Assembly: GCA_964016885.1 (NCBI GenBank)
Contig: OZ024740.1
Location: 76,012,001-76,076,000, forward strand
From: Eledone cirrhosa
Lineage: Eukaryota
Direction: 5' to 3'
DNA length: 64,000 nt
In this document: positions 2,280 to 51,990 of the stretch, piece after piece
How positions within the stretch are numbered: the stretch's first letter is position 1
How the letters are laid out: the number at the start of each line of letters is the position of its first letter
Made by a program: the position numbers and the translations under genes
The notes under the pieces: model-generated
Database searches by the model: none
What the model saw: the letters and a program-made list of their open reading frames with translations, nothing else
Told to the model about the DNA's origin: nothing

Positions 2280-2636
2280 TGCCTTCTTCAATGCAATGTT
2301 CTTTCTGCTCAGTGGGTGTTTTTTGTCATAACACCTACACAACCACTTTACAGTACAGACTGGACGCTCGCTTTTGTCATGACACCTACATGACCACTAT
2401 AGTAGCCTGGGCTCTTTTGTTGTGGCTCCAGGGGGAATCACCTTATAGAGGATGTTGGGAATTTGGGCGGGGTGGGGAAGATGCTTTGGGAAATTGAGGA
2501 CGTAGGTATAAGCGAGGTTTATGGGAGGGGAGATGGTAGGGAATGGTGTTGCCTACTAGGTATATGCCTCAGTCTCGGGTCTTCTGTAATACTTCATAGC
2601 ACCAGAGGTCACGGTCCTGTGTCATCACCTTAGTGA
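2280..2636 (-). mobile_element. RTE LINE 3' end remnant
   Basis: The minus strand encodes the RTE C-terminal TKVMTQDRDLWCY..KTR, followed by RTE 3' UTR motifs. Confidence 0.65.
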
Positions 2637-2820
2637 TTAACATGCTTATTTTATTGTTATTAATTAAATGTGTACATTTGTGTGCTTACCATATCTTGTT
2701 CTTGTTCTTATCCCTGTATGTGGTATTATATTCCTTAACTTGTTTTATAACATTTTGTGTTAATAGATCTATAAATAATCTATAAATAATCAAATGAGTC
2801 ATGAATTCTGGCCCACCCTG
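2637..2820. mobile_element. Tc1/mariner-type MITE (one TIR retained), inserted at TA in an RTE
   Basis: Ends gagtcatgaattctggcccaccctg followed by TA. Its internal part is the reverse complement of 51610-51735. Confidence 0.7.
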
Positions 2821-2828
2821 TAGTTGTT

Positions 2829-2976
2829 CATATACATGCATCATACAGTCTGCTTTTCATATACATGCATCATACAGTCTGCTTTTCATATACATGCATC
2901 ATACAGTCTGCTTTTCATATACATGCATCATACAGTCTGCTTTTCATATACATGCATCATACAGTCTGCTTTTCAT
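2829..2976. repeat. 29-bp tandem repeat x5 derived from RTE coding sequence
   Basis: Unit catatacatgcatcatacagtctgctttt. Its reverse complement is the RTE segment encoding MKxRLYDACI. Confidence 0.9.
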
Positions 2977-2997
2977 TTTGTGGGAAAAACCTTTTGT

Positions 2998-4712
2998 ATC
3001 ATCATCATCATCATCATCATCACCAACATTTAATGTCAATCTTCCACACTAGCATAGGTTAGACGGGAGTTGTCCCAATTTGAGGGAAGGTTGGTCGGCT
3101 GACTATGTCTCGCTCATAGGACTATCTGGCAGGTTTTCTACGGCTGGATGCCCTTCCTAACACCAACCACACTTACAGTGTGGACTGGGAACTTTTTACC
3201 ATGTTACCTACACGGCCACATTACAGCGTGGACTGTGTATTATTTTTGTCATGACACCTACACGATCTCGATCTCATTATCTCATTTATTTGGACTGGAT
3301 GTTGTGGTAACAACTTTACAGAGAAAGGGTGGTATTGGTGGGAGTGGAAGGATGGAGTAGGGGTAGTGGGTTGCGGTGTATATTTGGTTAAGAGGTGCCT
3401 ACTGACTGTAGGTTTCGCTTCATACATAGGCAAGGTTGGTCTTCTGTATTACTGCGTGGCGCCAAAGATCTCATTTCAGTGACATTGTCTTAGAGAGGTG
3501 CAAGTGTGTAAGGTCGGAATTTATCAAATCATCCCAGGTTTTACTGTGTCTACCTACTCCGTAACTTCCATCAATTTTGATTGCCCTGCACTTTTTTATA
3601 CAGCTGTCGTCTTTCATGCGCATCACGTGACTCTACCAACGTAGTCTTCTCTCAAGCAAACAGCATCTGATCCCTCTTATTCCTAATTTCTCACTTAGTT
3701 CATTTATGCTTTGCCGTTTGCAATAATAAATAGGAGAGGGCTAAGGACAGAGCCTTGATGAACACCAACTTTTACACTAAATTCATTGTTAATTCTAACC
3801 TTACTGACTGTTTCTTTATACATGGCTTGTATAGCTCTCACAAGCCATTCATCTACACCTAGTTTTCTAAGAGCCCACCAGATAATGGAGTGGGGGACTC
3901 TGTCAAAGGCTTTCTCCAGGTCTACAAAATCTAAGTAGAGGGGTTTACTTTTAGCTAGGTACTTCTCTTGTAGTTGTCGTACAACGAAAAGACCGTTTGT
4001 AGTACTTTTACCTGACACAAACCCAAACTGCATTTCATCTAGATCAATTTGCTCTCTGATTAGTTGCGCTATAACTCTTTCTGTGACCTTCATGAGCTGG
4101 TCAACTAACTTAATGCCTCTATAGTTTCCCCTATCTGGAGCATCCCCTTTACCCTTGTAGCAGTTAATGATGATGCTGCTATGCAAGTCTTTTGGTATGA
4201 CCCCATTCTGTATTACTTGGTTTACTATCCGGGTGACCATAGTATGTCCCACCATTCCAGATGCTTTCAACATCTCAGCAACTATCTCCGAATGCCCAGC
4301 TGCCTTGCCTGTCTTCATATCTTTGATTGCCTTACTTATTATACAACCGCTGGTCCTTCTATTGGATCGATTTGGGGCAGACTATCTTTTTCCCACTTAT
4401 TTTCCTCATTTAGTAGTCTCTCGTAGTGACACTTCCAAGCTACCTTCTTATCAGTATCAGTGATGGCAAGTACACCATTATCATTACGGACATACTTCTC
4501 CCCGACAATATCACGGTTTTCCTTGACATACTGTCTAGCAATCCTGAACACCTCACGTTTTTGGTCCTCACGTTGTAGAACATGCTTGAACTTTCTATCC
4601 TCTGCTTCCCTTTTTGCAAAGTACACTTGTCTCGTAGCTTCTCTCCTGGCCACTTGATAGTCTTCTCTACTTCCCCCATCCTGCCATACTTTTCAAGCCT
4701 GCTTTTTGGCCT
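2998..4712 (-). mobile_element. RTE (BovB-like) LINE, 5'-truncated, internally deleted, pseudogenised RT
   Basis: ORFs 4339-4653 and 3704-4318 carry RT motifs (NYRGIKL, QFGF, DLEKAFDRV, GVHQGSVLSPLLF). There is a deletion at ~3715 and a (GAT)n tail at ~2998-3022. Confidence 0.9.
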
Positions 4713-4950
4713 TGTATGTATATATATATTAAAAATATAGGGAAGAGAAGTTGTTGAGAGTGTAATTGGAGTCTTTGGGAAGATTTATTTGCAGTAGCTT
4801 TGTCAGTTTTGCCGTCTCATGATTTTCAAAACTTTTTCTCCATCTCTTAACTTTCGAAAATTATAAAACTGTGAAACTGGTGAGGTTGTAAATAAATTTT
4901 CTTTTGATTCCAATTGCATTTTAAAATTTCTTTTTCCTATATTTTTAACA

Positions 4951-6377
4951 TATACTAGCAGAATGGCCCAGCGTTGCTCGGGATTTGCTCTAGGGTTCTT
5001 ATATATTTGACATATATTTATCCTTATCGAGCCTCGTGAAATAAATATGTTTGTTTATATTTTGTTATTGTGTATGCAAAAATATATAATTATATATATA
5101 TTAAAATAACAGATTAAAGTTTAAGCAAAGAATCGCTGCTTTCACCCTTAACGGGATCTTCTGAAATTAAAAAAATCAATCTGTGAACGCAGAAGTAAAT
5201 ATTTCGAAAAACGTTACACACTATATATATATATATACCTCTAAAAGGTTCTCCCTAAAAATGAAAGGCAGGTTGTATGATGCCTGCACACGAACAGCAA
5301 TGTTGCATGGCAGTGAGACCTGGGCATTGTGTGCAGAGGATATACACAGACTAGAGAGGAACGAAGCTTGCATGCTCCGCTGGATGTGTAATAGTAATAT
5401 ACGTGAACGGCAAAGCATTAACGAACTAAGGGAAAAATTAGAAATAAGAGGGATCAGATGTTGTTTACTTGAGAGAAGGCTACGTTGGCATGGTCACGTG
5501 ATGCGCATGAAAGACGACAGCTGTATAAAAAAGTGCAGGGCAATAAAGATAGACGGTAGCCACGGAGTAGGCAGACCCAGAAAAACCTGGGACGACCTGA
5601 TAAATTCCGACCTCACACACTTACACCTCTCCAAGACAATGTCACTGGACCAAGATCTTTGGCGGTACTCAGTAATAGAGAAGACCCGCCTTGCCTAAAT
5701 ACGAAGTAAACCTACTACAGTCAGTAGGCATCTCTAACAAAATACGCCCCCGTCACACCACCCCCGCCCCTTTCAATGTAAAGTTACGTTGGTGCCACAA
5801 CATCCAGGCCGAAACAAATGAGATCGTGTAGGTGTCACAACAAAAAAACACACAGTCCACGCTGTAATGTGGCCGTGTAGGCAACACGGTAAAAACCTCC
5901 CAGTTCCACACTGTAAATGTGGTTGGTGTTAGGAAGGGCATCCAGCTGTAGAAAACCCGCCAGACAGTCCTATGCGAGCAAGACAACCACTCTTGCCTCA
6001 AGTGGGAAAACTCCCGTCCAAACCCATGCAAGCGTGGAACATGGACGTTAAACGATGATGATGATGATGATGACACACACTATATATACATGTATACACA
6101 CACACACACACACCATGTCATAATGTTGTAATGCAGACAGCCAGACATAGAGACAAATATCTATCTAAAAAGAGAAAGACTAAGAATTATAGCCAGAGAT
6201 CGCTAAATCGCCTAATGTAGTCCTTAGAGCATTGAAAATTTGAAATATTCTGTTCTCAAAACACTCGCAGGACCATAAGTATTACATGAATAAAGTTTGA
6301 AAACAATCGGTTGGGTGGTTCTCGAGTTTTAGTGAGCTGACAGACAGACAGACATTCTCTGTTTTAGATATATAGAT
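4951..6377 (+). mobile_element. Non-autonomous Helitron/Helentron-like (HINE-like) element with nested RTE fragment
   Basis: 5' end tactagcag..cccagcgttgctcggg; 3' end (caga)n..tttagatatatagat. The same end pattern recurs at 12153-14407. Confidence 0.55.
5238..6073 (+). mobile_element. RTE LINE 3' fragment
   Basis: ORF 5183-5698 (MLHGSETW..RRLRWHGHVMRM..GRPRKTW), followed by 3' UTR and a (GAT)n tail. Confidence 0.9.
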
Positions 6378-6564
6378 AATTGTTTCTACTTTTGGCACAA
6401 GGCCATCAATTACCCAGTACATTACTGGTACTTTATTTTATCGACCCCGTAAGGATGAAAGGCAAAGTTAACCTTGGCGTGATTTGAACTCAGAATGGCA
6501 AGGGCCGTAACTCTATACGTCAATGCATGGCGTCCGACCCTCTACCAATACTACCAATCCACCG
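6377..6564 (-). mobile_element. tRNA-derived SINE (~190 bp) with Deu/Nin-like central domain
   Basis: A-box tggtagtattggtagag, B-box gagttcaaatc, core gcctttcatccttacggggtcgataaa. TSD ATAGATAAT at 6372-6380 and 6565-6573. Confidence 0.85.
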
Positions 6565-8280
6565 ATAGATAATGTGAGTTCATGTAGTATATATATAACT
6601 GCGGGTTGTTGATTTGTTTGTAGTTGTTGTTTTGTGGAGATGCCAGACTAAGTGGTTAGGATATTGAATTTTGGCTGGCCATGTGTTCATATCTTGTCAC
6701 AGGTTTTGTGTCTCTGGGACATTGTCTCATATAGGGGTTCCTCCCTAATTAACCTTAATCCTTAATCACTGTCTTACCTTTATGATTTTATCTGATATTA
6801 CTTTAATTTTCTGAGTTATTCAACAAATTATGAGGTGTCATTTTTGTTTTTCTTTACACGTCCTTGTTTCTTTGTTCCTATTTATTAAAATAATATATAA
6901 ATGGTCAACAAATGTTTTTAGCTCTTAAAACAAAACATAAAAATATACTCTACTTTCGATTTCTATCTCAGCTTCAAATATACTGCTGTTGGTGTTTTAT
7001 GTGTTTCTATATAAAACCACTTTATCCTATATTACTATCTGAGAAGGTTTCCCGTAGCAGACCTGTAATGAGTCCTTATCAGAAATGTCTACATTGAACA
7101 AGTTTTTTTATATTATCCTTCCAAAAGAAAATTGCCATTAGAATCTGCCACATTATGACCACAATGGTGATGACATCTACTGGTATCATGTAACCCAGTA
7201 CAACCTGCTTCGTGGTTGAGTGGTCAGCTCCCACACCTGAGTCTGGTCTGATTAGGGGGATAAATGGAACCCCAGCAGCATAAAAAAACAAGAGCTATTA
7301 AAAAGGCAGATGAGTTAACTTCCATCCACCCCCCAACTATGAGTTAAATAGCCTCACCAACACACAATTGGCCAAGCATGGTGTGTATTGCTACATCCCT
7401 GACATAACCCTACCCCTCCAAAAAAGTGGTAGAGGTCAACCAGGAATGAGAAGGCACTGGATTGGATTGGTGATGACAGATCTGGTGTCTTTTGAAAAAG
7501 CCTTCAGTCTCTTCCTAGAACCATCTAAGCCATGTTCACTACATTGAATAGGTGTTGTCATTAAAATATTGGATTAAATGTCTTGTGGTATTTGTACCAG
7601 CTCTTTGTGTTCTGAGTTGAAATCTTGCTGAGGTCAACTTTCATCCTTTCGGGGTTAATAAAGTACCAGTCCAGGGCAGTGAGTGGATTGGCAGAATTGC
7701 TAAGGTGTTGGACGGGATGTCTTGTGGTATCTGTTCTGGTTCCATGTGGTCTATAGAAAGCTGGTGAAATCTGCACAAATGTGAGCTGTAGCAATAACAT
7801 TAAAAACTGGAGTCAAACACCAGTCATTGGTAAACAGAAGCCAATGTGTGTCATGAGCTGGGATATGCATAATTGAAGTAAAAAATGCTTTGTTTGGTTC
7901 AGTGGCTTATGTTTTATGTTAGATGTTTAGCTTCTTGAGACCTGTGTGAGCTTAAAATAGAATGTTATGTCATGCATACACTGTTGAGGCTCAACACTGA
8001 AATATCTTATGTGTCATGTCCTCTATGAACACTCACACAATGTGCTGTTTTATTGTGGGCTAAATAAAACATAAAATATATCACCCGTCCCACCTGGAAT
8101 GATATCTATGGTTAAATACTTCAGTATATATTATAATCTGACAGTTCTGTTACCTTTAATCTTGAATTTCAACAGACTTTGGCCTGTCTTGAGAAATTAA
8201 GGGTCATGGAGCATGAAGCTAACAACTTTATCTCCATTAATTAAAGCTTGTGCGACAATATTATTATTATTCCAGAATTG

Positions 8281-8465
8281 GCGGTGGATTGGCAGTATTG
8301 GTAGAGGGTCAGACGCCATGCTTTGACATATAGAGTTACGGCCCTTGCCATTCTGAGTTCAAATCCCGCTAAGGTTAACTTTGCCTTTCATCCTTACGGG
8401 GTCGATAAAATAAAGTACCAGTAATGCACTGGGTAAATGCTGGCCTTGTGCCTAAGGTAGAAATA
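8281..8465 (+). mobile_element. tRNA-derived SINE, full length
   Basis: Same family as 6377-6564, flanked by the ~21-bp TSD attattattattccagaattg. Mirror copy at ~49467-49652. Confidence 0.9.
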
Positions 8466-9913
8466 ATTATTATTATTCCAGAATTGTGCAGACTCACTAT
8501 AATCTTACTTCACTATCCTGATCTAGACAGTGCATCATTATAATATTAAATATGTTTTCATTCGCTGATAGTTTCGAGATTCTATGTGATTGCTTTTAAC
8601 TATCTAAACTATAATAAAGGAATGAGTGCGGGACTGCGTCCAGAATATATTTTTTTATCCCGTTTGTAAAATAAGTTGGATTACTTTGAATAAATAATAA
8701 ATGAATATTACATAATTTATCTACTAAATTTTGTTATTCTTCATTAAATATAAATAATATTGTTGCTTATTTTAAGATTCACTTCTTTAAAAATGTCAAC
8801 ACTTCCGGTTAGCGATCGCTTAAATAAACATTCATATATTTCCATCACTAATTTTCTCCTAATGCAGTTTATATATAATATCGTCTTTTTTAATGTATCA
8901 TGGATTACGTTACCGATTACATAAGACAGCGTAACGCAGTCTTCGTTCAATTTCTGTCTATGCTGTCAATTATGATTTTATTTGATGTATCATATCTACA
9001 TGTATATATACTTGCGTATAATATCAATATACACACTACACATGCTAGCAGAAAACCACCCGAAGGGTGGTATTTCTGCTAGTTAAGCTAATAATCGATG
9101 GTGAATGTTTTTATAATCTATTTTCATAAGATAGGAATTTATTTGGCTTATGGTAGGGACGGTAAAAGTCCATTATTTAGTTCGAAAGTTGCTTCCAGGA
9201 AATTCACAACCTCAATAGTTATGGTGATTCCATAATTCTTAAAGAACCTATGCAATAACGATTGAGTCTAACCATAAGGTCGTAAATTTCCTGGATATGC
9301 ATACTTAGAAATAGTTATGTAATAAACAAAAGAATTTTAGGGGAATATTAATATACAAACATAATTATGTCCATTTCTGGCTGTATCACATAGTGTCCCC
9401 ATTAATCAATTGTGATTTAGGGAGTCAAATATGAACTTATCCAAAACTAATTTGTTTAATCCTATAAAATAATTTCTAAGGTTAATTTTCCATGATGAAT
9501 TTTTGTTTGTCTCCTTCTTAAACCAAGATGTCAACATCCAACATTCGTGCGAAATACGAAACCCGACAAAATGTATTTGGTCTATATAGACTTGGTATTT
9601 AAGATGCATAATTAAATAACATATTCTGGTAATCTAATTTTTTCACCAATGACTATCGTTTTCTCACAGATGAGAATGAGCTGTGATCTTATTGAAATAG
9701 AGCTACATCTATAGATTGACTACATAAAACGAATTTTGTAACACTTTGAATAATTCGAGGTCATATCTCATTCGAAATGATTCTAAGGGAATAAATACGG
9801 TTCTTTGACGAAAGAAGATTAATTTCCCATTCATACCTTAGTCTATATTTGCTTTGCATTTATATGTATAACCACTCTTCCACGCTAATATCTCTTCTTC
9901 AAATGTTTATATA

Positions 9914-10691
9914 CAGTAATCCCCTGTTTATACGTACCAGAACCAACCACGATAAATGAAAATCCGCGATATAGAGAGACCCTAAATACAACTGTTGTTT
10001 TCATAGTTTAAGCCTTAAAATACCTCTCCTACATGCTTCAAGTACATATAAACTCATTAAAACACACTTCCGTATCCCTTTAGCATTTACATTACTCTAT
10101 ATATACTATTGTATGTTTGTGGGAAAGCCTTTACCTCACGTAATTATCTCACATAATATAGAATCTATGAGGTTTTGATATTATTTATTTTGAGAACAAT
10201 ACCTTAACATCAGTATAAGCAGCTGGTTACGGCCGGTTCAAAGAGAAAGATTGCCGGTTTAAATTCTAAAGGTTTAAAATACCTCTCCTTCATACTTTAA
10301 GTACATATAAACTCATTAGAAAACACTTGTATTTAAACACCAAAAACAGCCGGTAACTATTTTATAGAAACTACCACTGATTACCAATGAGGACCATTGC
10401 CAGCCATGGTAGCCACTTGGTAATAATACACTGCACATCTCCCGCTAACCTATGAAGGGTTTTTAGTAAAACAGTAATGAAACGAAAAATAAAAACATTT
10501 TTTATTGTTAAAGCCTTAAAGATGCCCCTTCCTTATGATATACACTTCAATCGAAACTTATTTAATAAGTTTAAAATTTAAACACTTTTTATTCAGACGT
10601 ATCGCGATAAGAAAATAGATATGTTCTAACGAAAAATCTGCAATGTAGCGGGATCGCGAAAAGTGAACCGCGATATAGTGGGGGATTACTG
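9914..10691. mobile_element. pogo/Tigger-like non-autonomous DNA transposon
   Basis: TIRs cagtaatcccc / ggggattactg flanked by TA; no transposase. Confidence 0.85.
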
Positions 10692-11024
10692 TATTATAAA
10701 AATGCATTGAGCTATTCCTTTCTCTTAAAAGCTGGTAATTACACTCTATAAGTTTAATTCTCTACTCTCCTTTGAGAATTGCTAATATAGTTCTAACTTT
10801 GATATATATACCCAGTGAGCGCTCTTTATATCTTTGTGTCTGACACAACTAGCACCTTAGAATGGATCTATATGAGCTGGATTACTCTTTGAAGAACATT
10901 CCCACTTCTTTTAACCATGTTTATTCTAAGCTTCTTCTTCCAAAAGCTGATGTTGTGAAACGCTTGACAATATATTTATATCTATATTTACTCCTAATTT
11001 ATATTTTTTCTTAATTTTTTCCTT

Positions 11025-11571
11025 AATGGAAACAGTGCACTTTTCATGTGAATGGAGTACCACTGAAGCAGGTAGAGAAATTGAAGTATCTCAGGGCCAT
11101 GGTCATGAGTGATGGAAGGCAGGAGGCTGAATTAAGTGCAGGAATTGCAAATGCTGGTACAATAATGCACCAGTTTCAACATTCAGTAATCAAAAGAAGG
11201 GAGGTAGGTGTAAAAGCCAAACTTGCTATCTTTAATTTGGTATTCATGCCAACCCTTACCTATGGTCATATATATATCTTGGATAATGTCCAAAAGAATA
11301 TGATCGTGAATACAAGCGGCCAAAATGAAGGGTCTTTGGAGTAACATTACTTGATAAAGTGCATAGCTCAGAGATCATAGTCACTCCAGGTAGAGCCGCT
11401 ACTTCTCTGAATTGAGAGATCACAGCTCCAATTCTATGGGCATGTGGTTAGAATGTCTGTTGAGCAAGATGGTTCAATAACATCCATGAGCTTGGCTGGT
11501 CTCGCTTGGGGATCCAGCTGGATCAGTTGGAGATGGTTGCCTCTGATGAAGAAGAAGAAGAAGAAGAAGAA
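11025..11571 (+). mobile_element. RTE-clade LINE 3' fragment (second family) with (GAA)8 tail
   Basis: ORF 11048-11344 (LKQVEKLKYL..SDGRQE..PTLTYGH); a short GAA tail follows. Confidence 0.7.
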
Positions 11572-12330
11572 ATATATTTATTAGTACAGATTAAAGTTTA
11601 AACAGAATTTCTGCTTCCACCTTATACACCGCTCTGTCGTGCCTGTTAAGGTGTTCAGTTGGAGCTATAGGATGACCCGAAAATATTTGCAAAAAATGAT
11701 GAGCAATTGCAAGGGCTATGAAGCAGTTCAGTGATGATATTAAAATAGAGTTTGGACTAGATCAAAGGTTCTCAACGGGGGGCATATGAAACCCTGGGGG
11801 CGTTTCGGAACTCCAGGCGGGCTTTTGGGGGCAAAGGTTCGTTGGGGGGGGGGCTTTGGGGCGCACTGGTAGGCTCTTTACTTTGGTAAGTTTTATAAGC
11901 CATATTTGTATGTCTCTGAGACAGCCAGTGTGAATGCATTTGAATGAGCATGCAGACAGCATAACTTATGGTCTGACTGCAGCTGTGAGCAGGTGTGCAG
12001 GTGTGTTTAGACATTAACCGGCAATTGAGATCCTAAAAATGGAAAAACCCAGTCAACTGGGTCAAGGACACTTTGAGCACAGCCAGTTAGAATCTTATAA
12101 ATTATTAACTCAACCGAAATGAGTTAACACTATGTAGATCTACTTTATTCCCTACTAGCAGATTTACCCGGCGTTGCCCAGGGTTTGAAATTATGCTAAG
12201 AATATACAGCTAGGAAGTAAAAGAAGAACATTATTTCTCCCCAACCTGTCAAAATATGCAGAAGTCTTCAATAATTAATGCAAACGAAGTATTTTATAGA
12301 TTTAATCGAATTACAATATTCTACGTTGAT

Positions 12331-13705
12331 GTCATCATCATCACCGTTTTACGTCCGTTCTTCCATGCTAGCATGGGTTAGACAGGTTGTCCTGTTGTGG
12401 GCAGTGTCTGGTCGGCTGACCATGCCTTGCTCATACAGGAACTGATTTTGGCTTGATTTCTACAGCTGGATGCCCTTCCTAACACCAACCTCATTTACAG
12501 TGTGGGCTGGGTGCTTTTTTGCTGTGGCACCTCCACGACCACCTTGCAGTGGGAGGGTGTGGGGAATATTGTCTATATGCTTCAGCTTGTACCCATAGGA
12601 GGTCGGGTATTCTATATTACTGCGTGACGCCAGAGTCCACGGTCGCCTTTCAGAGGTGTAATTGGGTAAGGTCGGCTTTTATCACCTCATCCCAGGTCTT
12701 CTTGGATCTCCCCACTCCGCGGTTTCCATTGACTTCTAGTGCTCTGCACATTTTTATGCAGCTGTCATCCTTCATACGCATCACATGTCCATACCAACGC
12801 AACCGCCTCTCCTGCACATAGCATTTGATTTCTCTTATGCTCAGTCTCTCTCTCAATTCATTTATGCTTTGTCGTTCGCGTATATTACTATTACACAATC
12901 ATCGGAGCATGCAGGCTTCGTTTCTTTCTAATCTACGTAAGTCTTCCACCTTCAGCGCCCAGGTCTCACTACCATGTAACATTGCTGTTCGGATACACGC
13001 ATCATACAGTCTGCCTTTCATTTTGAGGGAGAAGCCTTTTGCAGCTAGCAGTGGCAGTAGTTCCCTGAACTTCTTCCATCCCGTTCTTACCCTAGTTATT
13101 GTACTTTCTGAACACCCACCTCCGCTGCTAATTCGGTCACCTAGGTAGCAGAAGCTGTCTACTGTTTCTACAGAGCCCTCCCAGAGATTGGTGGTACTTG
13201 TTTCCTGTGGCTGTTTGCTGCTTGCTGTCCCAGCACAGCTGCTGCATGTGAAGTCTACATTCTTAATTAAGCTTCCTGAGATCCCGCTACATCTCGTGTA
13301 CCCATTGTTTGCATTTGGGGCAGAGAATGGAGTTCCTACCTACACCTTTCCTACATACTGAGCAAGGCCATTTCCCTGAGGGGATCTGGGTTCTGTTTTC
13401 TCGTCTACTTACAAGGACCTTAGTCTTTGTCATGTTGACTTTGAGACCCTTTCTTTCTAGTCCCTGCTTCCAAGTTTGGAATTTCTTCTCTAGTTCTACC
13501 ATAGATTCAGATATAAGTGCGAGGTCATCAGCATACAGGAGTTCCCATGGGCATCCGGTCTTAAACTCCTCTGTTATTGCCTGCAGGACTATGATAAACA
13601 GGAGAGGGCTAAGAACAGAGCCTTGGTGGACACCAACCTGTACGCTAAATTCCTCACTATACTCATTGCTAATCCTAACTTTGCTGACTGCTCCCTTATA
13701 CATGG
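12331..13705 (-). mobile_element. RTE LINE 3' fragment (pseudogenised)
   Basis: ORFs 13287-13703 (QGSVLSPLLF, LLYADDL, WPCSVC) and 12650-12898; (GAT)n tail at ~12331-12343. Confidence 0.9.
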
Positions 13706-13855
13706 CGCATCAAAACTCTTTATAAGGAGTGGATTATATGCAACAACCCATCTGTTGTCAACCTCATGTTTCCCAACCCTCGCTGTGAATCCACCATCTT
13801 TGGGTCTTCTCTGGCGATATAGTGGGTATCCGTCATGACCAGTCTGAGTGTCAAC
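13706..13855 (-). mobile_element. Helitron Rep/helicase coding fragment fused to the 5' end of the RTE fragment
   Basis: Translates TQTGHDGYPLYRQR..DNRWVVAYNPLL..F.A, matching the conserved Helitron DGYPxYRRR..DNRWVVPYNPxL motif. Confidence 0.75.
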
Positions 13856-14479
13856 ATGGCTTATGAAAGTTTTAAAAATGTAAAAGTTGTAGGTCCCAAT
13901 GGTTTGAATGGAAAGCCCCATAACGATTGTTCTAAAAATAAACAAACCATCATCAAAATCTCGTCAATTCGAGACTGCTGCGAGATTAGGCCCTTAACGT
14001 GAAAATTAACACTTAATATAGTGAAACAAGTTAAAACAACAAGTGTTTTTTTAACTTTGAAAGTGCAACAAAGAATAAAGAAACAAATGATAATATTAGT
14101 GATTTATCTTCAAATGAATCTGATGTTTATATTTGTCAATAAAGTTGGTTATCTCCCTTTTTTATAAGGATTGTCAATAAAGTTGGTTATCTCCCTTACA
14201 TCAATTTTGCTACCGATAATTTTGATATCGATTTTTTATTGCTCAACGTGGGTCGATTTGAAAATGTTTTGTGATGTGACCATCTTAGCGACCTGTGCAA
14301 CGCGCACAGAAAATTTGATCAAATTCGGTTGGTAATTGTAAAAGCCTTAGGTATCCAAAGTTGTACACATACACACACACACACACTCTCGCTTTTATAT
14401 ATATAGAAGAAGGTAGAAGATTGTATAAATATTACAAATAAAAAAAGAAAAGAAAAAACAGAGAAGCGGCTAGCACACA

Positions 14480-14620
14480 CACCTAGGACCACATACAACA
14501 CGAGGTAATACACACATCTAAGACCACATACAACACACAAGCAGGTAATACATACATCTAGGACTACATACAACACACAGGCAGGTATTACATACATCTA
14601 GGACCACATACAACATACAT
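14480..14620. repeat. ~39-bp tandem repeat x~4
   Basis: Unit approximately aggtaatacatacatctaggaccacatacaacacacagc. One inverted copy is at ~17222-17262. Confidence 0.8.
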
Positions 14621-33298: not shown

Positions 33299-33334
33299 TA
33301 TACATAGCACGGGAAACATAAACAATAATAATAA

Positions 33335-39300: not shown

Positions 39301-39412
39301 TAAAATCTCTCTCTCTCTATATATATATATCAATAAGCGTGAACCTAATACTTTTCGTAACTTGTACTCCTCTGTTGTTTTTTAATTTCCCTTATATATA
39401 TATATTATATAT

Positions 39413-39499: not shown

Positions 39500-39691
39500 C
39501 ACAACTCGTGTGTTACACCTCTATTCTTTTAAATATATATATATATAGTCTGATATTGTGTTGTTTATTATGTAATTAAATAGCTCTGTACAATACATAG
39601 ACCACTCTTTTTTTCCTTTACTTTTTCTACGGAAATACTCAACACATAAACATATACGGTGGGGGGGGGGGGGGTTAATAAATAAACATTT

Positions 39692-39768
39692 TAAAAGCCC
39701 AGCTACGAATATTGAAAGGCTGACGACCAACCTTGTCCAGCGGATACCAGCAAAGAGCTGGGCTTTTA
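39692..39768. repeat. 77-bp element with 13-bp inverted termini (tiny MITE-like); mirror at ~17833-17909
   Basis: taaaagcccagct ... agctgggctttta. Confidence 0.55.
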
Positions 39769-41278
39769 TGAACTTTTTACTACGTCCTCAATTCTGCTGA
39801 TAATAATTGCGATTTCTTTTCATTAAAATGACAATTGATTATTAATTTCCTAAATTTTTGCTACTGACAACATAATAAATAACCTGAATACTATTTTACA
39901 TTCATAGTTTTATTTCATCATAACTGTTTATATATTATTGGCTCTATTTCATTACAGCCGAGTTAAATAAATGTAACTCTTTGCACTCTTTTTATCTCAT
40001 TCTCTGTTGTAGAGACTTGATTCTGCATGTCTTTCTCGCTATCCATTTGTTGTCTTTTTTTATTTTTGTAAATTATATTCATAATATTCATTGTGTATAT
40101 TATATTCATAATATAATATACGCAATTAAATATATTCATAATATTCATTGTGTATCAAGATGTTTTAATAAAATGTAATGAAAGGTTGATAATACAAGAT
40201 ATTTTTTTTAATAGTCTGTTTTATTCACAGTTGTATAAAAATATATAATATATAATAATATAATGCTTACAGAACGAAAACACAAAAAATATAATATACA
40301 AAGGAAAGGGAAAGACAAAAAAAAAAGAGGAAAAAAACACATAAGCAGGTAATACACACATCTAGGACCACATACAACAAAGAACAGGCGAAAGGAATGG
40401 ACAAACGAACGGCTACCAGAGCATAAGATAACAATATCGCGAGAAGCACTGGGAAGCCTCTCTAATAATTTTGGGGACATGTTTTGTCTCTTTCCTTCTT
40501 TTCCTTTCCCTTTTGTATATATTATATTTGTTTGTTTTCGTTCTGTAAGCGTTATATTATTATATATTTTTGGCAGTATCGGTAAGTAGAAACAATTATA
40601 TTTTTATACAACTGTGAATAAAGCAGACTATTTAAAAAAAAAAAAAGAATCATTTTACTTCGTATAACAGATGTACTAATATACGAATATGCTACGTAGC
40701 CAGTAAACCCGAAAGGGACGTAACACACATCGCTATAGCATTTCACCAACCCCTTCTGTTGTCTATCTGTTTATGTATTTACGTGTAGTGTGTGTATGTA
40801 ACTAAAGCGTAACGTACGTTACGAATGGACGACTAATGGTGGAAAAGATTTCAAATTGTTTTGACTCGTGGTGTCTGACACTCTTACCGGCTATAAAGCC
40901 TCTTCCAAGTATATATACTCTTCTAATGTATATGGGCAGTTCCCATTAGTACTATCTTTTGTATTTATTCTATACGCAGGTTTCCTGAGATTTGGGATAA
41001 GTAATCATTAGACCCTTTATCATTCCTAGAGCGCCTACAACCACTGGTATTGTTTTAGCTCTCAACTTCCACATTTTTCCAATCTCTATTTCCAGGACTT
41101 TTTTGCTCAATTTTTCAAATGTTTTTATAGATACATTCTTGTCTGTAGGAACGGTCATGTCAACAAGCAATTGCTTTTTCTGTTTTTCATTTCAGCAGTA
41201 AAGGGGACTCCTGAAATATGTAGTTCATTACTATCTATGTGCATCTGATGAACGTGGATTTGGCACATTCATCTAGTC

Positions 41279-44200
41279 CACAGGTTCTCAGCCCATTTGG
41301 GCCAAATGCCCCCTTTTGTCCCTCGAAATCACGAAACGCCTTACCCTTTTTTTTTTTTTCATTTTTCAATATACTACTGATTTTGATATCAGTAAATTAT
41401 TAAAAGATTGATTAACAATATTCCAAAGATACCATTGCAGGCAGCTGAGAGTATAAATACATTCCTTGAAAGGAAATATATAAATTTAAAAAAAAAGGAA
41501 CATAAATGTTCTTTTTTATGAATAAGGACCAGTTGAATTTCTTATATTTCCACCAGGCGATACCAGCTATTTTGAACATTTATACATGAGCAACTCTGTC
41601 TATTCCAAGAGTGCTCTTATCTGGAAGAAAGTGGCAATTATATCATTTCAAAGCTTTCCAATTTTCCCTTTAATGAAACGGACAGAATAAATGTTGATAT
41701 CTAACTTGATGTCCCCTCTGCTTTGTGAGCTTAGAGACCATGGAAGAGGGTTTTCATGACCATATAAGAGGGTATATTTATTAGTAAATGGTAAAATATA
41801 TACAACAAATGAGTAAGTGAATTGTAGTAGATGGTTTCCAGTCCAGTCAGACTGCAACTACAAATAAAAAAGTTGTTAGTTTGCTTTGTAACAATAGCAT
41901 ATCCAAGTTTTCGGATTACTTTAACTTTGACCTCATTTCAATAGAACCCTTGAGCTTCATGGAGTCTAGTTAACTCTTTGACGTGAGACTGATTTTCGTA
42001 AGATGTAGCCTGAGATCTCCACATGCAATTACATTGTAGCGGTTGCGAGCCTTACTGTGCAGCCTCGAAACAGCACCAAACCTCCTCTCGACTAAGTACC
42101 AGGTTGGAATAGGCAGAGCAAATCTCTTAGCCTCTGCATGTAGGAGTGGAAATCGACGCTGAATTTCCTCTTGCATCCAAAAAAGGGGTTCACCTATTTT
42201 GGGAAATCTAATTTTGATCATGTCATCTGCTTGAAGTTCAATGAATACTTCCTGAAATTTAATGTCCAAATCGTCGATATTAGCTATGAAGGGTTCTGCT
42301 ATCCACATTGGGATGTCCATCGGCAAAAGGTCGACAAACCGTTCTCTCATATTGTCTTGTAGAACACGGAGGTGAGTGATATAAATTTGGAGTTGGTCAT
42401 CGCTCACAATGTTTTAAACATTGGTGACATTAGGAAAATTATAGAATTCCCATCTACAAAGATTCCTTTCGATGATATTCAATTTGGCCAGGAATGTTTT
42501 CACAGCATTCCTTGCTTTAAGCAAGGTGATCTTTCCCTGCAAAGCCATAATGACGCCATTGCATTTGTCAAGGATGGCGGTCTTGCCTCACATCGAGGGT
42601 TTTCTTGTACAGTTCTGTGTTGCGTCCTCGCAGAAACTCAATGATAGAGTTGAACAGTTCAAAGAAGTGAGTAAGGCACTTGCCCTTTGAAAGCCACCTC
42701 CTGTCAGTATGAAGGAGCAACTTGACGAATTCTTCGTCATTATCTTGGCACAGTTGCCGGAAATTCGTTCATTGAGGGAAAGCCGTTTGATAAAATAGAT
42801 GACATCAATGGCCACCTGCAATGACTTGCTCAGTGGCTTGCTGAGTTTCTTTGCAGCCAAGTGTTGTCGATGAATGACACAATGAACAGCAAATACAGAT
42901 AGATTTTCTCTCTTCATAAGAGTGACAAAACCTTATGTTGGCCGACAATTGCTCTTGCGTCATCCGTAGCACATGATACAATGTATGTTGTATGTGGTCC
43001 TAGATGTATGTAATACCTGCCTGTGTGTTCTATGTAGTCCTAGATGTATGTATTACCTGCTTGTGTGTTGTATGTGGTCTTAGATGTGTGTATTACCTCG
43101 TGTTGTATGTGGTCCTAGGTGTGTGTGCTAGCCGCTTCTCTGTTTTTTCTTTTCTTTTTTTATTTGTAATATTTATACAATCTTCTACCTTCTTCTATAT
43201 ATATAAAAGCGAGAGTGTGTGTGTGTATGTGTACAACTTTGGATACCTAAGGCTTTTACAATTACCAACCGAATTTGATCAAATTTTCTGTGCGCGTTGC
43301 ACAGGTCGCTAAGATGGTCACATCACAAAACATTTTCAAATCGACCCACGTTGAGCAATAAAAAATCGATATCAAAATTATCGGTAGCAAAATTGATGTA
43401 AGGGAGATAACCAACTTTATTGACAATCCTTATAAAAAAGGGAGATAACCAACTTTATTGACAAATATAAACATCAGATTCATTTGAAGATAAATCACTA
43501 ATATTATCGTTTGTTTCTTTATTCTTTGTTGCACTTTCAAAGTTAAAAAAACACTTGTTGTTTTAAGTTGTTTCACTATATTAAGTGTTAATTTTCACGT
43601 TAAGGGCCTAATCTCGCAGCAGTCTCGAATTGACGAGATTTTGATGATGGTTTGTTTATTTTTAGAACAATCGTTATGGGGCTTTCCATTCAAACCATTG
43701 GGACCTACAACTTTTACATTTTTAAAACTTTCATAAGCCATGTTGACACTCAGACTGGTCATGACGGATACCCACTATATCGCCAGAGAAGACCCGAAGA
43801 TGGTGGATTCACAGCGAGGGTTGGGAAACATGAGGTTGACAACAGATGGGTTGTTGCATATAATCCACTCCTTATAAAGAGTTTTGATGCGCCATGTATA
43901 GGGGAGCAGTCAGCAAAGTTAGGATTAGCAATGAGTATAGCGAGGAATTTAGCGTACAGGTTGGTGTCCACCAAGGCTCTGTTCTTAGCCCTCTCCTGTT
44001 TATCATAGTCCTGCAGGCAATAACAGAGGAGTTTAAGACCGGATGCCCATGGGAACTCCTGTATGCTGATGACCTCGCACTTATATCTGAATCTATGGTA
44101 GAACTAGAGAAGAAATTCCAAACTTGGAAGCAGGGACTAGAAAGAAAGGGTCTCAAAGTCAACATGACAAAGACTAAGGTCCTTGTAAGTAGACGAGAAA

Positions 44201-45867
44201 ACAGAACCCAGATCCCCTCAGGGAAATGGCCTTGCTCAGTATGTAGGAAAGGTGTAGGTAGGAACTCCATTCTCTGCCCCAAATGCAAACAATGGGTACA
44301 CGAGATGTAGCGGGATCTCAGGAAGCTTAATTAAGAATGTAGACTTCACATGTAGCAGCTGTGCTGGGACAGCAAGCAGCAAACAGCCACAGGAAACAAG
44401 TACCACCAATCTCTGGGAGGGCTCTGTAGAAACAGTAGACAGCTTCTGCTACCTAGGTGACCGAATTAGCAGCGGAGGTGGGTGTTCAGAAAGTACAATA
44501 ACTAGGGTAAGAACGGGATGGAAGAAGTTCAGGGAACTACTGCCACTGCTAGCTGCAAAAGGCTTCTCCCTCAAAATGAAAGGCAGACTGTATGATGCGT
44601 GTATCCGAACAGCAATGTTACATGGTAGTGAGACCTGGGCGCTGAAGGTGGAAGACTTACGTAGATTAGAAAGAAACGAAGCCTGCATGCTCCGATGATT
44701 GTGTAATAGTAATATACGCGAACGACAAAACATAAATGAATTGAGAGAGAGACTGAGCATAAGAGAAATCAAATGCTATGTGCAGGAGAGGCGGTTGCGT
44801 TGGTATGGACATGTGATGCGTATGAAGGATGACAGCTGCATAAAAATGTGCAGAGCACTAGAAGTCAATGGAAACCGCGGAGTGGGGAGACCCAAGAAGA
44901 CCTGGGATGAGGTGATAAAAGCCGACCTTACCCAATTACACCTCTGAAAGGCGACCGTGGACTCTGGCGTCACGCAGTAATATAGAATACCCGACCTCCT
45001 ATGGGTACAAGCTGAAGCATATAGACAATATTCCCCACACCCTCCCACTGCAAGGTGGTCGTGGAGGTGCCACAGCAAAAAAGCACCCAGCCCACACTGT
45101 AAATGAGGTTGGTGTTAGGAAGGGCATCCAGCTGTAGAAATCAAGCCAAAATCAGTTCCTGTATGAGCAAGGCATGGTCAGCCGACCAGACACTGCCCAC
45201 AACAGGACAACCTGTCTAACCCATGCTAGCATGGAAGAACGGACGTAAAACGGTGATGATGATGACATCAACGTAGAATACTGTAATTCGATTAAATCTA
45301 TAAAATACTTCGTTTGCATTAATTATTGAAGACTTCTGCATATTTTGACAGGTTGGGGAGAAATAATGTTCTTCTTTTACTTCCTAGCTGTATATTCTTA
45401 GCATAATTTCAAACCCTGGGCAACGCCGGGTAAATCTGCTAGTAGGGAATAAAGTAGATCTACATAGTGTTAACTCATTTCGGTTGAGTTAATAATTTAT
45501 AAGATTCTAACTGGCTGTGCTCAAAGTGTCCTTGACCCAGTTGACTGGGTTTTTCCATTTTTAGGATCTCAATTGCCGGTTAATGTCTAAACACACCTGC
45601 ACACCTGCTCACAGCTGCAGTCAGACCATAAGTTATGCTGTCTGCATGCTCATTCAAATGCATTCACACTGGCTGTCTCAGAGACATACAAATATGGCTT
45701 ATAAAACTTACCAAAGTAAAGAGCCTACCAGTGCGCCCCAAAGCCCCCCCCCCCAACGAACCTTTGCCCCCAAAAGCCCCCCCCCCAACGAACCTTTGCC
45801 CCCAAAAGCCCGCCTGGAGTTCCGAAACGCCCCCAGGGTTTCATATGCCCCCCGTTGAGAACCTTTG
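41279..45867 (-). mobile_element. hAT transposon with nested HINE-like/RTE/Helitron pieces (right-arm mirror of 11763-16323)
   Basis: TSD ATCTAGTC on both sides; mirrored ORFs. Confidence 0.9.
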
Positions 45868-46058
45868 ATCTAGTCCAAACTCTATTTTAATATCATCACT
45901 GAACTGCTTCATAGCCCTTGCAATTGCTCATCATTTTTTGCAAATATTTTCGGGTCATCCTATAGCTCCAACTGAACACCTTAACAGGCACGACAGAGCG
46001 GTGTATAAGGTGGAAGCAGAAATTCTGTTTAAACTTTAATCTGTACTAATAAATATAT

Positions 46059-46181
46059 TTCTTCTTCTTCTTCTTCTTCTTCTTCTTCTTCTTCTTCTTC
46101 TTCTTCTTCTTCTTCTTCTTCTTCTTCTTCTTCTTCTTCTTCTTCTTCTTCTTCTTCTTCTTCTTCTTCTTCTTCTTCTTC
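46059..46181. repeat. (TTC)41 microsatellite, the tail of the RTE-clade fragment at 46059-46700
   Basis: Directly visible; the left arm has only 8 units. Confidence 0.95.
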
Positions 46182-47037
46182 ATCAGAGGCAACCATCTCC
46201 AACTGATCCAGCTGGATCCCCAAGTGAGACCAGCCAAGCTCATGGATGTTATTGAACCATCTTGCTCAACAGACATTCTAACCACATGCCCATAGAATTG
46301 GAGCTGTGATCTCTCAATTCAGAGAAGTAGCGGCTCTACCTGGAGTGACTATGATCTCTGAGCTATGCACTTTATCAAGTAATGTTACTCCAAAGACCCT
46401 TCATTTTGGCCGCTTGTATTCACGATCATATTCTTTTGGACATTATCCAAGATATATATATGACCATAGGTAAGGGTTGGCATGAATACCAAATTAAAGA
46501 TAGCAAGTTTGGCTTTTACACCTACCTCCCTTCTTTTGATTACTGAATGTTGAAACTGGTGCATTATTGTACCAGCATTTGCAATTCCTGCACTTAATTC
46601 AGCCTCCTGCCTTCCATCACTCATGACCATGGCCCTGAGATACTTCAATTTCTCTACCTGCTTCAGTGGTACTCCATTCACATGAAAAGTGCACTGTTTC
46701 CATTAAGGAAAAAATTAAGAAAAAATATAAATTAGGAGTAAATATAGAAATAAATATATTGTCAAGCGTTTCACAACATCAGCTTTTGGAAGAAGAAGCT
46801 TAGAATAAACATGGTTAAAAGAAGTGGGAATGTTCTTCAAAGAGTAATCCAGCTCATATAGATCCATTCTAAGGTGCTAGTTGTGTCAGACACAAAGATA
46901 TAAAGAGCGCTCACTGGGTATATATATCAAAGTTAGAACTATATTAGCAATTCTCAAAGGAGAGTAGAGAATTAAACTTATAGAGTGTAATTACCAGCTT
47001 TTAAGAGAAAGGAATAGCTCAATGCATTTTTATAATA

Positions 47038-47815
47038 CAGTAATCCCCCACTATATCGTGGTTCACTTTTCACGATCCCGCTACATCGCAGATTTTTCGT
47101 TAGAACATATCTATTTTCTTATCGCGATACGTCTGAATAAAAAGTGTTTAAATTTTAAACTTATTAAATAAGTTTCGATTGAAGTGTATATCATAAGGAA
47201 GGGGCATCTTTAAGGCTTTAACAATAAAAAATGTTTTTATTTTTCGTTTCATTACTGTTTTACTAAAAACCCTTCATAGGTTAGCGGGAGATGTGCAGTG
47301 TATTATTACCAAGTGGCTACCATGGCTGGCAATGGTCCTCATTGGTAATCAGTGGTAGTTTCTATAAAATAGTTACCGGCTGTTTTTGGTGTTTAAATAC
47401 AAGTGTTTTCTAATGAGTTTATATGTACTTAAAGTATGAAGGAGAGGTATTTTAAACCTTTAGAATTTAAACCGGCAATCTTTCTCTTTGAACCGGCCGT
47501 AACCAGCTGCTTATACTGATGTTAAGGTATTGTTCTCAAAATAAATAATATCAAAACCTCATAGATTCTATATTATGTGAGATAATTACGTGAGGTAAAG
47601 GCTTTCCCACAAACATACAATAGTATATATAGAGTAATGTAAATGCTAAAGGGATACGGAAGTGTGTTTTAATGAGTTTATATGTACTTGAAGCATGTAG
47701 GAGAGGTATTTTAAGGCTTAAACTATGAAAACAACAGTTGTATTTAGGGTCTCTCTATATCGCGGATTTTCATTTATCGTGGTTGGTTCTGGTACGTATA
47801 AACAGGGGATTACTG
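47038..47815. mobile_element. pogo/Tigger-like element (mirror of 9914-10691)
   Basis: Same TIRs and TA flanks. Confidence 0.85.
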
Positions 47816-49048
47816 TATATAAACATTTGAAGAAGAGATATTAGCGTGGAAGAGTGGTTATACATATAAATGCAAAGCAAATATAGACTAAGGTATGAAT
47901 GGGAAATTAATCTTCTTTCGTCAAAGAACCGTATTTATTCCCTTAGAATCATTTCGAATGAGATATGACCTCGAATTATTCAAAGTGTTACAAAATTCGT
48001 TTTATGTAGTCAATCTATAGATGTAGCTCTATTTCAATAAGATCACAGCTCATTCTCATCTGTGAGAAAACGATAGTCATTGGTGAAAAAATTAGATTAC
48101 CAGAATATGTTATTTAATTATGCATCTTAAATACCAAGTCTATATAGACCAAATACATTTTGTCGGGTTTCGTATTTCGCACGAATGTTGTATGTTGACA
48201 TCTTGGTTTAAGAAGGAGACAAACAAAAATTCATCATGGAAAATTAACCTTAGAAATTATTTTATAGGATTAAACAAATTAGTTTTGGATAAGTTCATAT
48301 TTGACTCCCTAAATCACAATTGATTAATGGGGACACTATGTGATACAGCCAGAAATGGACATAATTATGTTTGTATATTAATATTCCCCTAAAATTCTTT
48401 TGTTTATTACATAACTATTTCTAAGTATGCATATCCAGGAAATTTACGACCTTATGGTTAGACTCAATCGTTATTGCATAGGTTCTTTAAGAATTATGGA
48501 ATCACCATAACTATTGAGGTTGTGAATTTCCTGGAAGCAACTTTCGAACTAAATAATGGACTTTTACCGTCCCTACCATAAGCCAAATAAATTCCTATCT
48601 TATGAAAATAGATTATAAAAACATTCACCATCGATTATTAGCTTAACTAGCAGAAATACCACCCTTCGGGTGGTTTTCTTCTAGCATGTGTAGTGTGTAT
48701 ATTGATATTATACGCAAGTATATATACATGTAGATATGATACATCAAATAAAATCATAATTGACAGCATAGACAGAAATTGAACGAAGACTGCGTTACGC
48801 TGTCTTATGTAATCGGTAACGTAATCCATGATACATTAAAAAAGACGATATTATATATAAACTGCATTAGGAGAAAATTAGTGATGGAAATATATGAATG
48901 TTTATTTAAGCGATCGCTAACCGGAAGTGTTGACATTTTTAAAGAAGTGAATCTTAAAATAAGCAACAATATTATTTATATTTAATGAAGAATAACAAAA
49001 TTTAGTAGATAAATTATGTAATATTCATTTATTATTTATTCAAAGTAA

Positions 49049-49234
49049 GGGCGGTGGATTGGCAGTAACGGTAGAGGGTCGGACGCCATGCTTTGCAGCA
49101 CAGTTACGTCCCTTTACGGACTGAGTTCAAATCCCGCCGAGGTTAACTTTGCCTTTCATCCTTACGGGGTCGATAAAATAAAGTACCAGTAATACACTGG
49201 CATAATTGCTGGCCTTGTGTCAAAAGTAGAAACA
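49049..49234 (+). mobile_element. tRNA-derived SINE present only in the right arm
   Basis: 18-bp TSD ATTATTTATTCAAAGTAA at 49031-49048 and 49235-49252. The left arm has the empty site at 8681-8698. Confidence 0.95.
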
Positions 49235-51609
49235 ATTATTTATTCAAAGTAATCCAACTTATTTTACAAACGGGATAAAAAAATATATTCTGGACGCAGT
49301 CCCGCACTCATTCCTTTATTATAGTTTAGATAGTTAAAAGCAATCACATAGAATCTCGAAACTATCAGCGAATGAAAACATATTTAATATTATAATGATG
49401 CACTGTCTAGATCAGGATAGTGAAGTAAGATTATAGTGAGTCTGCACAATTCTGGAATAATAATAATTATTTCTACCTTAGGCACAAGGCCAGCATTTAC
49501 CCAGTGCATTACTGGTACTTTATTTTATCGACCCCGTAAGGATGAAAGGCAAAGTTAACCTTAGCGGGATTTGAACTCAGAATGGCAAGGGCCGTAACTC
49601 TATATGTCAAAGCATGGCGTCTGACCCTCTACCAATACTGCCAATCCACCGCCAATTCTGGAATAATAATAATATTGTCGCACAAGCTTTAATTAATGGA
49701 GATAAAGTTGTTAGCTTCATGCTCCATGACCCTTAATTTCTCAAGACAGGCCAAAGTCTGTTGAAATTCAAGATTAAAGGTAACAGAACTGTCAGATTAT
49801 AATATATACTGAAGTATTTAACCATAGATATCATTCCAGGTGGGACGGGGGATATATTTTATGTTTTATTTAGCCCACAATAAAACAGCACATTGTGTGA
49901 GTGTTCATAGAGGACATGACACATAAGATATTTCAGTGTTGAGCCTCAACAGTGTATGCATGACATAACATTCTATTTTAAGCTCACACAGGTCTCAAGA
50001 AGCTAAACATCTAACATAAAACATAAGCCACTGAACCAAACAAAGCATTTTTTACTTCAATTATGCATATCCCAGCTCATGACACACATTGGCTTCTGTT
50101 TACCAATGACTGGTGTTTGACTCCAGTTTTTAATGTTATTGCTACAGCTCACATTTGTGCAGATTTCACCAGCTTTCTATGAGGTTGCAGCTCCCCTATT
50201 TTTCCAATAACAGGAAGCAAGATTTGAACTCAGACCACATAGAACCAGAACAGATACCACAAGACATCCCGTCCAACACCTTAGCAATTCTGCCAATCCA
50301 CTCACTTCCCTGGACTGGTACTTTATTAACCCCGAAAGGATGAAAGTTGACCTCAGCAAGATTTCAACTCAGAACACAAAGAGCTGGTACAAATACCACA
50401 AGACATTTAATCCAATATTTTAATGACAACACCTATTCAATGTAGCGAACATGGCTTAGATGGTTCTAGGAAGAGACTGAAAGCTTTTTCAAAAGACACC
50501 AGATCTGTCATCACCAATCCAATCCAGTGCCTTCTCATTCCTGATTGACCTCTACCACTTTTTTGGAGGGGTAGGGTTATGTCAGGGATGTAGCAATACA
50601 CACCATGCTTGGCCAATTGTGTGTTGGTGAGGCTATTTAACTCATAGTTGGGGGGTGGATGGAAGTTAACTCATCTGCCTTTTTAATAGCTCTTGTTTTT
50701 TTATGCTGCTGGGGTTCCATTTATCCCCCTAATCAGACAAGACTCAGGTGTGGGAGCTGACCACTCAACCACGAAGCAGGTTGTACTGGGTTACATGATA
50801 CCAGTAGATGTCATCACCATTGTGGTCATAATGTGGCAGATTCTAATGGCAATTTTCTTTTGGAAGGATAATATAAAAAAACTTGTTCAATGTAGACATT
50901 TCTGATAAGGACTCATTACAGGTCTGCTACGGGAAACCTTCTCAGATAGTAATATAGGATAAAGTGGTTTTATATAGAAACACATAAAACACCAACAGCA
51001 GTATATTTGAAGCTGAGATAGAAATCGAAAGTAGAGTATATTTTTATGTTTTGTTTTAAGAGCTAAAAACATTTGTTGACCATTTATATATTATTTTAAT
51101 AAATAGGAACAAAGAAACAAGGACGTGTAAAGAAAAACAAAAATGACACCTCATAATTTGTTGAATAACTCAGAAAATTAAAGTAATATCAGATAAAATC
51201 ATAAAGGTAAGACAGTGATTAATGATTAAGGTTAATTAGGGAGGGGCCCCTATATGAGACAATATCCCAGAGACACAAAACCTGTGACAAGATATGAACA
51301 CATGGCCAGCAACAATTCAATATCCTCACCACTTAGTCTGGCATCTCCACAAAACAACAACTACAAACAAATCAACAACCCGCAGTTATATATATATTAC
51401 ATGAACTCACATTATCTATCGGTGGATTGGTAGTATTGGTAGAGGGTCGGACGCCATGCATTGACGTATAGAGTTACGGCCTTTGCCATTCTGAGTTCAA
51501 ATCACGCCAAGGTTAACTTTGCCTTTCATCGTTACAGGGTCGATAAAATAAAGTACCAGTAATGTACTGGATATTTGCTGGCCTTGTGCCAAAAATAGAA
51601 ACAATTAAT

Positions 51610-51779
51610 CATCTATTAACACAAAATGTTATAAAACAAGTTAATGAATATAATACCATATACAGGCATAAGAACATGAACAAGAAACGGTTACCACACA
51701 AATGTACACAATTAAGAATAAAATAAGCATGTTAAGAAATATAACTAACAAGCGAGTCATGAATTCTGGCCCACCCTGT
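51610..51779. mobile_element. Tc1/mariner-type MITE (other TIR retained), counterpart of 2637-2820
   Basis: The internal part is the reverse complement of 2637-2768. It ends gagtcatgaattctggcccaccctg and is followed by RTE sequence. Confidence 0.7.
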
Positions 51780-51781
51780 TG

Positions 51782-51990
51782 TATGTTGCACAGCAGCGAA
51801 ACCTGGGATCTGTGTGCAGAGGACCTGCATAGATTGGAAAGAAAGATTGGAAAGAAAGATTGGAAAAACCTCCATGCTTCGAGTGATGTACAATAGCAAT
51901 ATACTCGAACAGCAAGGCATAAATGAACTACGCGAGAAATTAGGCATAAGAGGAATCAGATGTTGTGTGCAGGAGAGGAGATTGCATTGG
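51782..51990 (+). mobile_element. RTE LINE fragment
   Basis: MLHSSETWDLCAEDLHRLER..INELREKLGIRGIRCCVQERRLHW. Confidence 0.85.

Follow-up and report, generated by a model that had tools for sequence, protein, structure and literature searches.

A stretch of 64,000 nucleotides from Eledone cirrhosa (GenBank assembly GCA_964016885.1, contig OZ024740.1, positions 76,012,001 to 76,076,000 of the forward strand; hereafter the window) carries two copies of a caspase-3-like gene in inverted arms. The window is a single sequence, contains no N, and was compared with itself. One long inverted match was revealed, 6377-20304 against 51607-37292, such that two inverted homologous arms enclose a unique spacer of 17 kb. 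The arms are about 14 kb in length and, apart from a more diverged outer edge, 99.7% identical; on neither side does the flank of one arm share homology with that of the other. The principal features are:

6377..20304, plus strand: left arm, consisting of the edge (6377-6771) and the interior (6772-20304)
6377..6771, plus strand: edge of the left arm, read as older; a short interspersed nuclear element (SINE) with a ATAGATAA target duplication, followed by 207 bp; differs from the right arm at 15 of 395 sites
6772..20304, plus strand: interior of the left arm, read as homogenised; 45 of 13,527 sites differ, evenly spread
18297..19148, minus strand: caspase-3-like gene, left copy; one open reading frame (ORF) of 283 amino acids, with QACRG; Pfam Peptidase_C14, E 7e-64
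20305..37291, no strand: spacer, with SINEs, reverse-transcriptase fragments, a 17-bp minisatellite (25111-33052) and, at the right inner join, a piece resembling a long terminal repeat (LTR)
37292..51607, minus strand: right arm, the inverted match to the left arm
38449..39300, plus strand: caspase-3-like gene, right copy; intact, a single ORF of 283 amino acids

The two genes are transcribed away from each other, both ORFs are intact, and the proteins differ only by E71D and T100K. Based upon a Peptidase_C14 domain, a short prodomain, the His and the Cys of QACRG, both copies are predicted effector caspases (caspase-3/7-like). A quick tree was built from 38 rows picked from 120 listed, plus the two window copies; its backbone is mostly open, and it was used solely to establish that the window caspases are each other's closest relative. 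An 87-bp near-perfect hairpin is located directly downstream of each caspase stop codon (18098-18184 and 39413-39499).

The alignment of the arms contains 60 substitutions in 13,922 columns, together with 11 indels. From the outer to the inner end the substitutions are distributed as 15/395, 6/1000, 8/4000, 17/4225 and 14/4302, in agreement with the original prediction, made by eye from this sequence, of about 15 differences in the outermost 395 bp, six in the next kilobase, and a few per thousand near the caspase (2 of the 870 sites of its ORF). The edge (3.8%, confidence interval [CI] 2.1-6.2) is far more diverged than the interior (45/13,527, or 0.33%; p 8e-11). Since 8 of the 207 sites outside the SINE also differ (p 1e-6), the excess is not a SINE effect. 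A change point at position 6761 was not reached in any of 2000 simulations, while a second is unsupported (p 0.83), placing the step near 6761-6772. Beyond 6771 the substitutions are uniformly positioned (Kolmogorov-Smirnov p 0.62), and their counts per 500 bp are Poisson, without overdispersion (p 0.38).

The same prediction held that divergence increases outward along the arms. This gradient did not survive: over 13.5 of the 13.9 kb identity is flat, an outcome that the prediction itself had named as refuting it, and the 1000 sites next to the edge do not exceed the rate of the interior (p 0.14). Divergence is lowest in an outer stretch (7772-11771; 8/4000, or 0.20%, against 31/8527 further in, p 0.17) rather than that beside the caspase, a direction opposite to a gradient. 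Models were fitted on 53 events, with the divergence of unconverted sequence fixed at 8% in the conversion model. The highest log-likelihood was that of a step (-332.4; three free parameters), followed by conversion failing at the outer edge (-334.4; two free parameters, tract of approximately 1.1 kb), an exponential edge of 237 bp (-334.5), a linear gradient (-346.1) and a flat profile (-348.3). With the linear model 14 log-units below the step and the interior uniform, an arm-wide gradient was rejected; the profile fits either a step or a rise confined to the outermost few hundred bases.

Beyond the outer ends of the arms are two pieces of a miniature inverted-repeat transposable element (MITE) inserted in an RTE-type retroposon:

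2575..2636, minus strand: remnant of an RTE-type retroposon 3′ end, matching other RTE 3′ ends in the window at 71-76% and joined straight to the MITE core
2637..2822, plus strand: left MITE piece, with the shared core (2637-2768), a terminal repeat core (2796-2820) and TA
2769..6371, no strand: 3.6 kb present on the left only, comprising the MITE end, RTE pieces and a Helitron-like element (4955-6376) with a nested RTE
51611..51782, minus strand: right MITE piece, with the shared core (51611-51735), which meets the arm end through four extra bases, and the second terminal repeat core (51754-51778), separated from TA by three further bases
51783..51988, plus strand: right RTE sequence, in register with the left flank and interrupted by a second MITE-like element at about 51990

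The pieces are inverted with respect to each other, and the cores (2637-2768 and 51735-51611) align over 132 columns with 10 mismatches and one 7-bp gap (10/125, or 8.0%), as had been estimated. Both display an identical 25-bp terminal repeat core and a TA target in register, the hallmarks of a MITE, which we presume to be of the Tc1/mariner type. On the left the RTE sequence resumes at 2823 and runs into a 29-bp tandem array. When the two flanks were aligned separately to RTE copies in the window, they lay exactly two bases, the TA target, apart in both copies tested (5243-5700 and 12604-13060). Both pieces consequently stem from one insertion at the same RTE nucleotide, as originally proposed. 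Two details of that proposal require correction: in the rebuilt RTE reading, DACIxTAMLH, the register is right but the residue following T is T and not A; and on the right the TA is in place, but with three extra bases between it and the terminal repeat. The right piece adjoins the end of its arm and is oriented as the arm is, and the left piece lies 3.6 kb beyond its arm. This position, taken with the shared insertion site, makes it very likely, on the evidence of sequence, that a single MITE-RTE composite was duplicated together with the arm region. No third copy of the MITE was found in the window, and its exact terminal repeat pattern had no matches in metagenome contigs. The second MITE-like element (51990-52162), with 40-bp terminal repeats (92.5% identical) and TA flanks, lies where the right RTE remnant ends.

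With a MITE insertion of single origin and 3.8-8% divergence in the relic against 0.33% in the interior, the homology is very likely older than the 99.7% identity of the core implies, which upholds the age claimed in the original prediction. This greater age is seen for the outer part; for the caspase-bearing interior it would follow by extension. Dated by its 99.7% identity, the gene pair would be mistaken for brand new, and it is the nested transposon, split between the two flanks, that reveals the older homology. The MITE (8%, CI 3.9-14) and the edge (3.8%) do not differ significantly (p 0.09), and three divergence strata were therefore rejected as proven; two hold. There are hints of nested levels (8% in the MITE, six changes in the first 80 bp of the edge, nine in the next 315 bp), each contrast being post hoc and with a p of about 0.09. 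SINEs common to both arms differ from sibling copies by 5-6%, a value which overlaps the range of the relic and thus gives no order relative to the duplication.

At the outer join the right arm is missing the equivalent of 2769-6371, and ATAGAT occurs at both ends of this segment, as had been noted; a shared word of at least six letters is found in 0.2% of random local junction pairs. The clean microhomology join that was suggested has to be rejected: on the right four extra bases follow ATAGAT, and on the left ATAGAT (6372-6377) also falls within the target duplication of the edge SINE. This target duplication covers the last five bases of the element at 4955-6376, which, judging by its ends (TC and CTAG, with an A-T target), we take to be a non-autonomous Helitron-like element; the fold at its 3′ end is weak (-5.5 kcal/mol). 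The two copies of the edge SINE have six derived letters in common, and so represent one insertion. Of the seven differences between them that could be polarised, six have the derived letter on the right (p 0.125), and five lie within 80 bp of the join.

We favour, with a probability of roughly 0.45, the reading that the arms are what is left of an inverted duplication both older and longer, and that repeated gene conversion, up to a recent time, likely re-homogenised their interiors. The duplication would originally have extended at least to the MITE; in the simplest reading, different deletions then followed on the two sides, the left losing the middle of the RTE and one terminal repeat of the MITE, and the right 3.6 kb. 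Copying between the arms, in tracts of roughly a kilobase, would have reset the interior while rarely reaching the last 0.4 kb beside the right-hand break. After the last reset the arms would have acquired 45 substitutions and 11 differences in length, one of which is a new SINE in the right arm. The large indel had been held responsible for the loss of homogenisation in the outer part; this is not supported, the step lying 385 bp inside the break and the inner end having no matching edge. Nor does the sequence lend support to conversion that is still ongoing, as the original prediction had it.

Several observations weigh against repeated conversion. At the inner end, 400 bp contain 2 events, compared with 12 at the outer end (p 0.013), and neither a diverged edge at the inner arm end nor a relic in the adjoining spacer was found. 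A conversion model with two edges is poorer (-336.4) than that with one. No mosaic is apparent in the interior: the longest identical run is 1104 bp (P 0.52), and the spacing is that of random points, as after a single reset. In addition, some of the edge divergence may derive from junction repair or from a SINE-SINE chimera. Under repeated conversion the inner join would need to postdate the outer join. When the two halves of the spacer were compared for an inverted relic, nothing beyond SINE family copies appeared, and a comparison of 1-6400 with 51600-64000 gave only MITE, RTE-family and SINE-family matches.

One insertion bears on the time of the last reset:

49049..49252, no strand: SINE of 204 bp, present in the right arm only, with a perfect 17-bp target duplication

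No halo of substitutions surrounds it, the nearest being 597 and 369 bp away. Because of this and its perfect target duplication, the SINE probably is younger than the last reset. Of the four large indels, three have no divergence halo; at the fourth, of 51 bp, 5 substitutions lie within 312 bp outside it, which is not significant as a change point. The bare inner end and the haloless SINE fit one long one-ended copy as well as they fit repeated conversion with a young inner join. The arms also differ in a GAA microsatellite, of 8 units on the left (11547) and 41 on the right (46059-46181).

Such a one-ended copy is the closest rival, and we regard it as possible, if doubtful. In a single recent event, a break would have invaded the older inverted relic, copied 13.5 kb inward past the caspase, and rejoined at 20304/37292, thereby creating this part of one arm or overwriting it entirely, so that the relic is old and the caspase pair may be young. 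It predicts the sharp step, which is the best-fitting model, a Poisson-flat interior, and a relic at the outer end with none at the inner, all as found. There is precedent both for the event, inverted repeats being known to prime replicative template switches in human rearrangements (PMC4352052), and for the length, tracts of more than 9 kb having been inferred in the Y palindrome P6 (PMC3723533). Set against this, it requires the invasion of homology diverged by 4-8% as well as a 13.5-kb tract, and it predicts a single, uniform level in the relic, from which the 8% and 3.8% depart weakly (p 0.09). The reading we favour and this one agree on the essential point: the homology is older, and was overwritten afterwards as sequence was copied from one inverted arm to the other.

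It is improbable that the arms arose in one recent inverted duplication, with the diverged edge and the MITE piece reflecting an independent copy of a MITE-in-RTE unit of many copies, together with a chimera of two SINEs and error-prone repair of the join. Mutation is raised near indels and breakpoints, and the four extra bases at the join are in keeping with such repair, as are the derived changes near it, biased towards the right SINE copy, three of them being letters that other SINE copies also have. This reading does not account for the 8 differences in 207 non-SINE sites, which extend as far as 385 bp from the join, or for the six derived letters common to the two edge SINE copies. Moreover, an independent composite would need to have inserted, correctly oriented, just at the end of the arm, in a window with no third MITE copy.

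A search of sequencing runs gave nine rows, in which three runs of one sample contain 55-59% of the words and two runs of other organisms 5%; these shares carry no weight as evidence. An assembly artefact, in which two alleles of one locus were joined head to head, is improbable too: 0.33% divergence and a presence/absence SINE would be compatible with two alleles, and an 8-kb minisatellite lies in the spacer, but the latter runs in one orientation throughout with 4-5 kb of unrelated sequence on each side, and a plain haplotype join is an unlikely source of the arms, as the original prediction had argued, because the flanks are non-homologous on both sides of both arms and there is no N.

The closest proteins to the window caspases among the matches listed are the caspase-3-like proteins of Octopus vulgaris, O. 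sinensis and O. bimaculoides (67-71% identity). Octopus species carry a large lineage-specific cluster of these genes, which in O. vulgaris appears as a run of accessions (CAI9722923-35) on one long contig. Seven of the 13 O. vulgaris copies compared are nearer to a copy of another species than to any of their own paralogues, indicating that much of this cluster is not evolving in concert; the other six are nearer within the species, and two within-species pairs are 96% identical. Two proteins of Argonauta hians (GAB1610139/40) share 96% identity with one another and about 71% with those of Octopus, and their consecutive numbering suggests that the genes are adjacent. These O. vulgaris and A. 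hians sequences include the closest proteins (69-71% identity) as well as the 96% within-species pairs. A scan of metagenome contigs for caspases returned nine loci of 29-53% identity, which carry no information on the pair. As a long shot, the two genes could belong to a long-lived, palindrome-like octopod caspase pair, its identity kept by inversion of the spacer followed by ordinary allelic crossover, or by conversion over several kilobases; the Argonauta pair would then represent a second lineage. If this were true, the original span would be preserved in the reciprocal transposon relic, and both orientations of the 17-kb spacer would exist within the species.

Converted Drosophila duplicates (Amy, Bob) are described as having raised divergence at the edges and identifiable blocks which shrink (Osada and Innan 2008; PMC2588116). 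The arms resemble these in their near-identical middle, raised edge, and an identifiable block smaller than the original duplication; they differ in that both edges are raised in Drosophila and orthologues of both copies occur in sister species, whereas here there is one edge and one species. According to Fawcett and Innan (PMC3924837), conversion is disrupted by large indels and by the insertion of transposable elements, and regions that have undergone it seem younger than they are. The human Y palindrome P6 is likewise composed of inverted arms around a unique spacer, with greater than 99% identity, a gene in the arms, and a need for multi-kilobase tracts; in that palindrome the tracts are inferred to average 2068 bp, some exceeding 9 kb, and inversions are rare (Hallast et al.; PMC3723533). 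Conversion in P6 was established by genotyping variants on a phylogeny, whereas here the argument is drawn from one sequence alone. Mammalian sex-chromosome palindromes also differ in identity, over 99.9% as compared with 99.7% in the 14-kb arms here. In the human inverted-repeat-primed replicative rearrangements (Beck et al.; PMC4352052), as at this locus, one junction is situated in older inverted homology and the other at unrelated sequence; unlike them, our case is evolutionary rather than de novo, and no triplication is seen.

Possible conversion in tandem clusters has been remarked upon in the argonaut genome paper (PMC9635652). Our literature search, which lay outside most subscription journals and supplements, found no paper on this locus and none devoted to the octopod caspase-3-like cluster. 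The principle was already established from flies and mammals, so that the locus would extend this knowledge and not change it. Exchange between arms could be measured here in a cephalopod, at a tractable locus where an effector caspase is doubled, about 60 differences can be scored and four joins are unique.

The spacer minisatellite (25020-33105, approximately 8 kb) has a 17-bp unit in about 468 copies matching at 94%, and yields a stop-free frame of 1875 codons which is probably not a gene. A direct repeat of 416 bp (21468-21883 and 23156-23556; 94% identical) is LTR-like, each copy lying ahead of reverse-transcriptase-related sequence; the piece adjoining the right inner join is, from its features, presumably LTR-like also.

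In the arms, the fragment at 13589-13963 (and its mirror on the right) lies next to an RTE reverse-transcriptase fragment; it has no Pfam match, and we assume from its motif that it resembles a Helitron Rep/helicase stretch. The broken frames at 14669-15631 give the impression of a hAT-type transposase, also with no Pfam match. Outside the arms, a long non-LTR retroposon with an ATT-repeat tail occupies 52785-56300 on the minus strand, and a truncated copy of 793 bp (57277-58069) is 97.9% identical to it, which suggests a recently active family.

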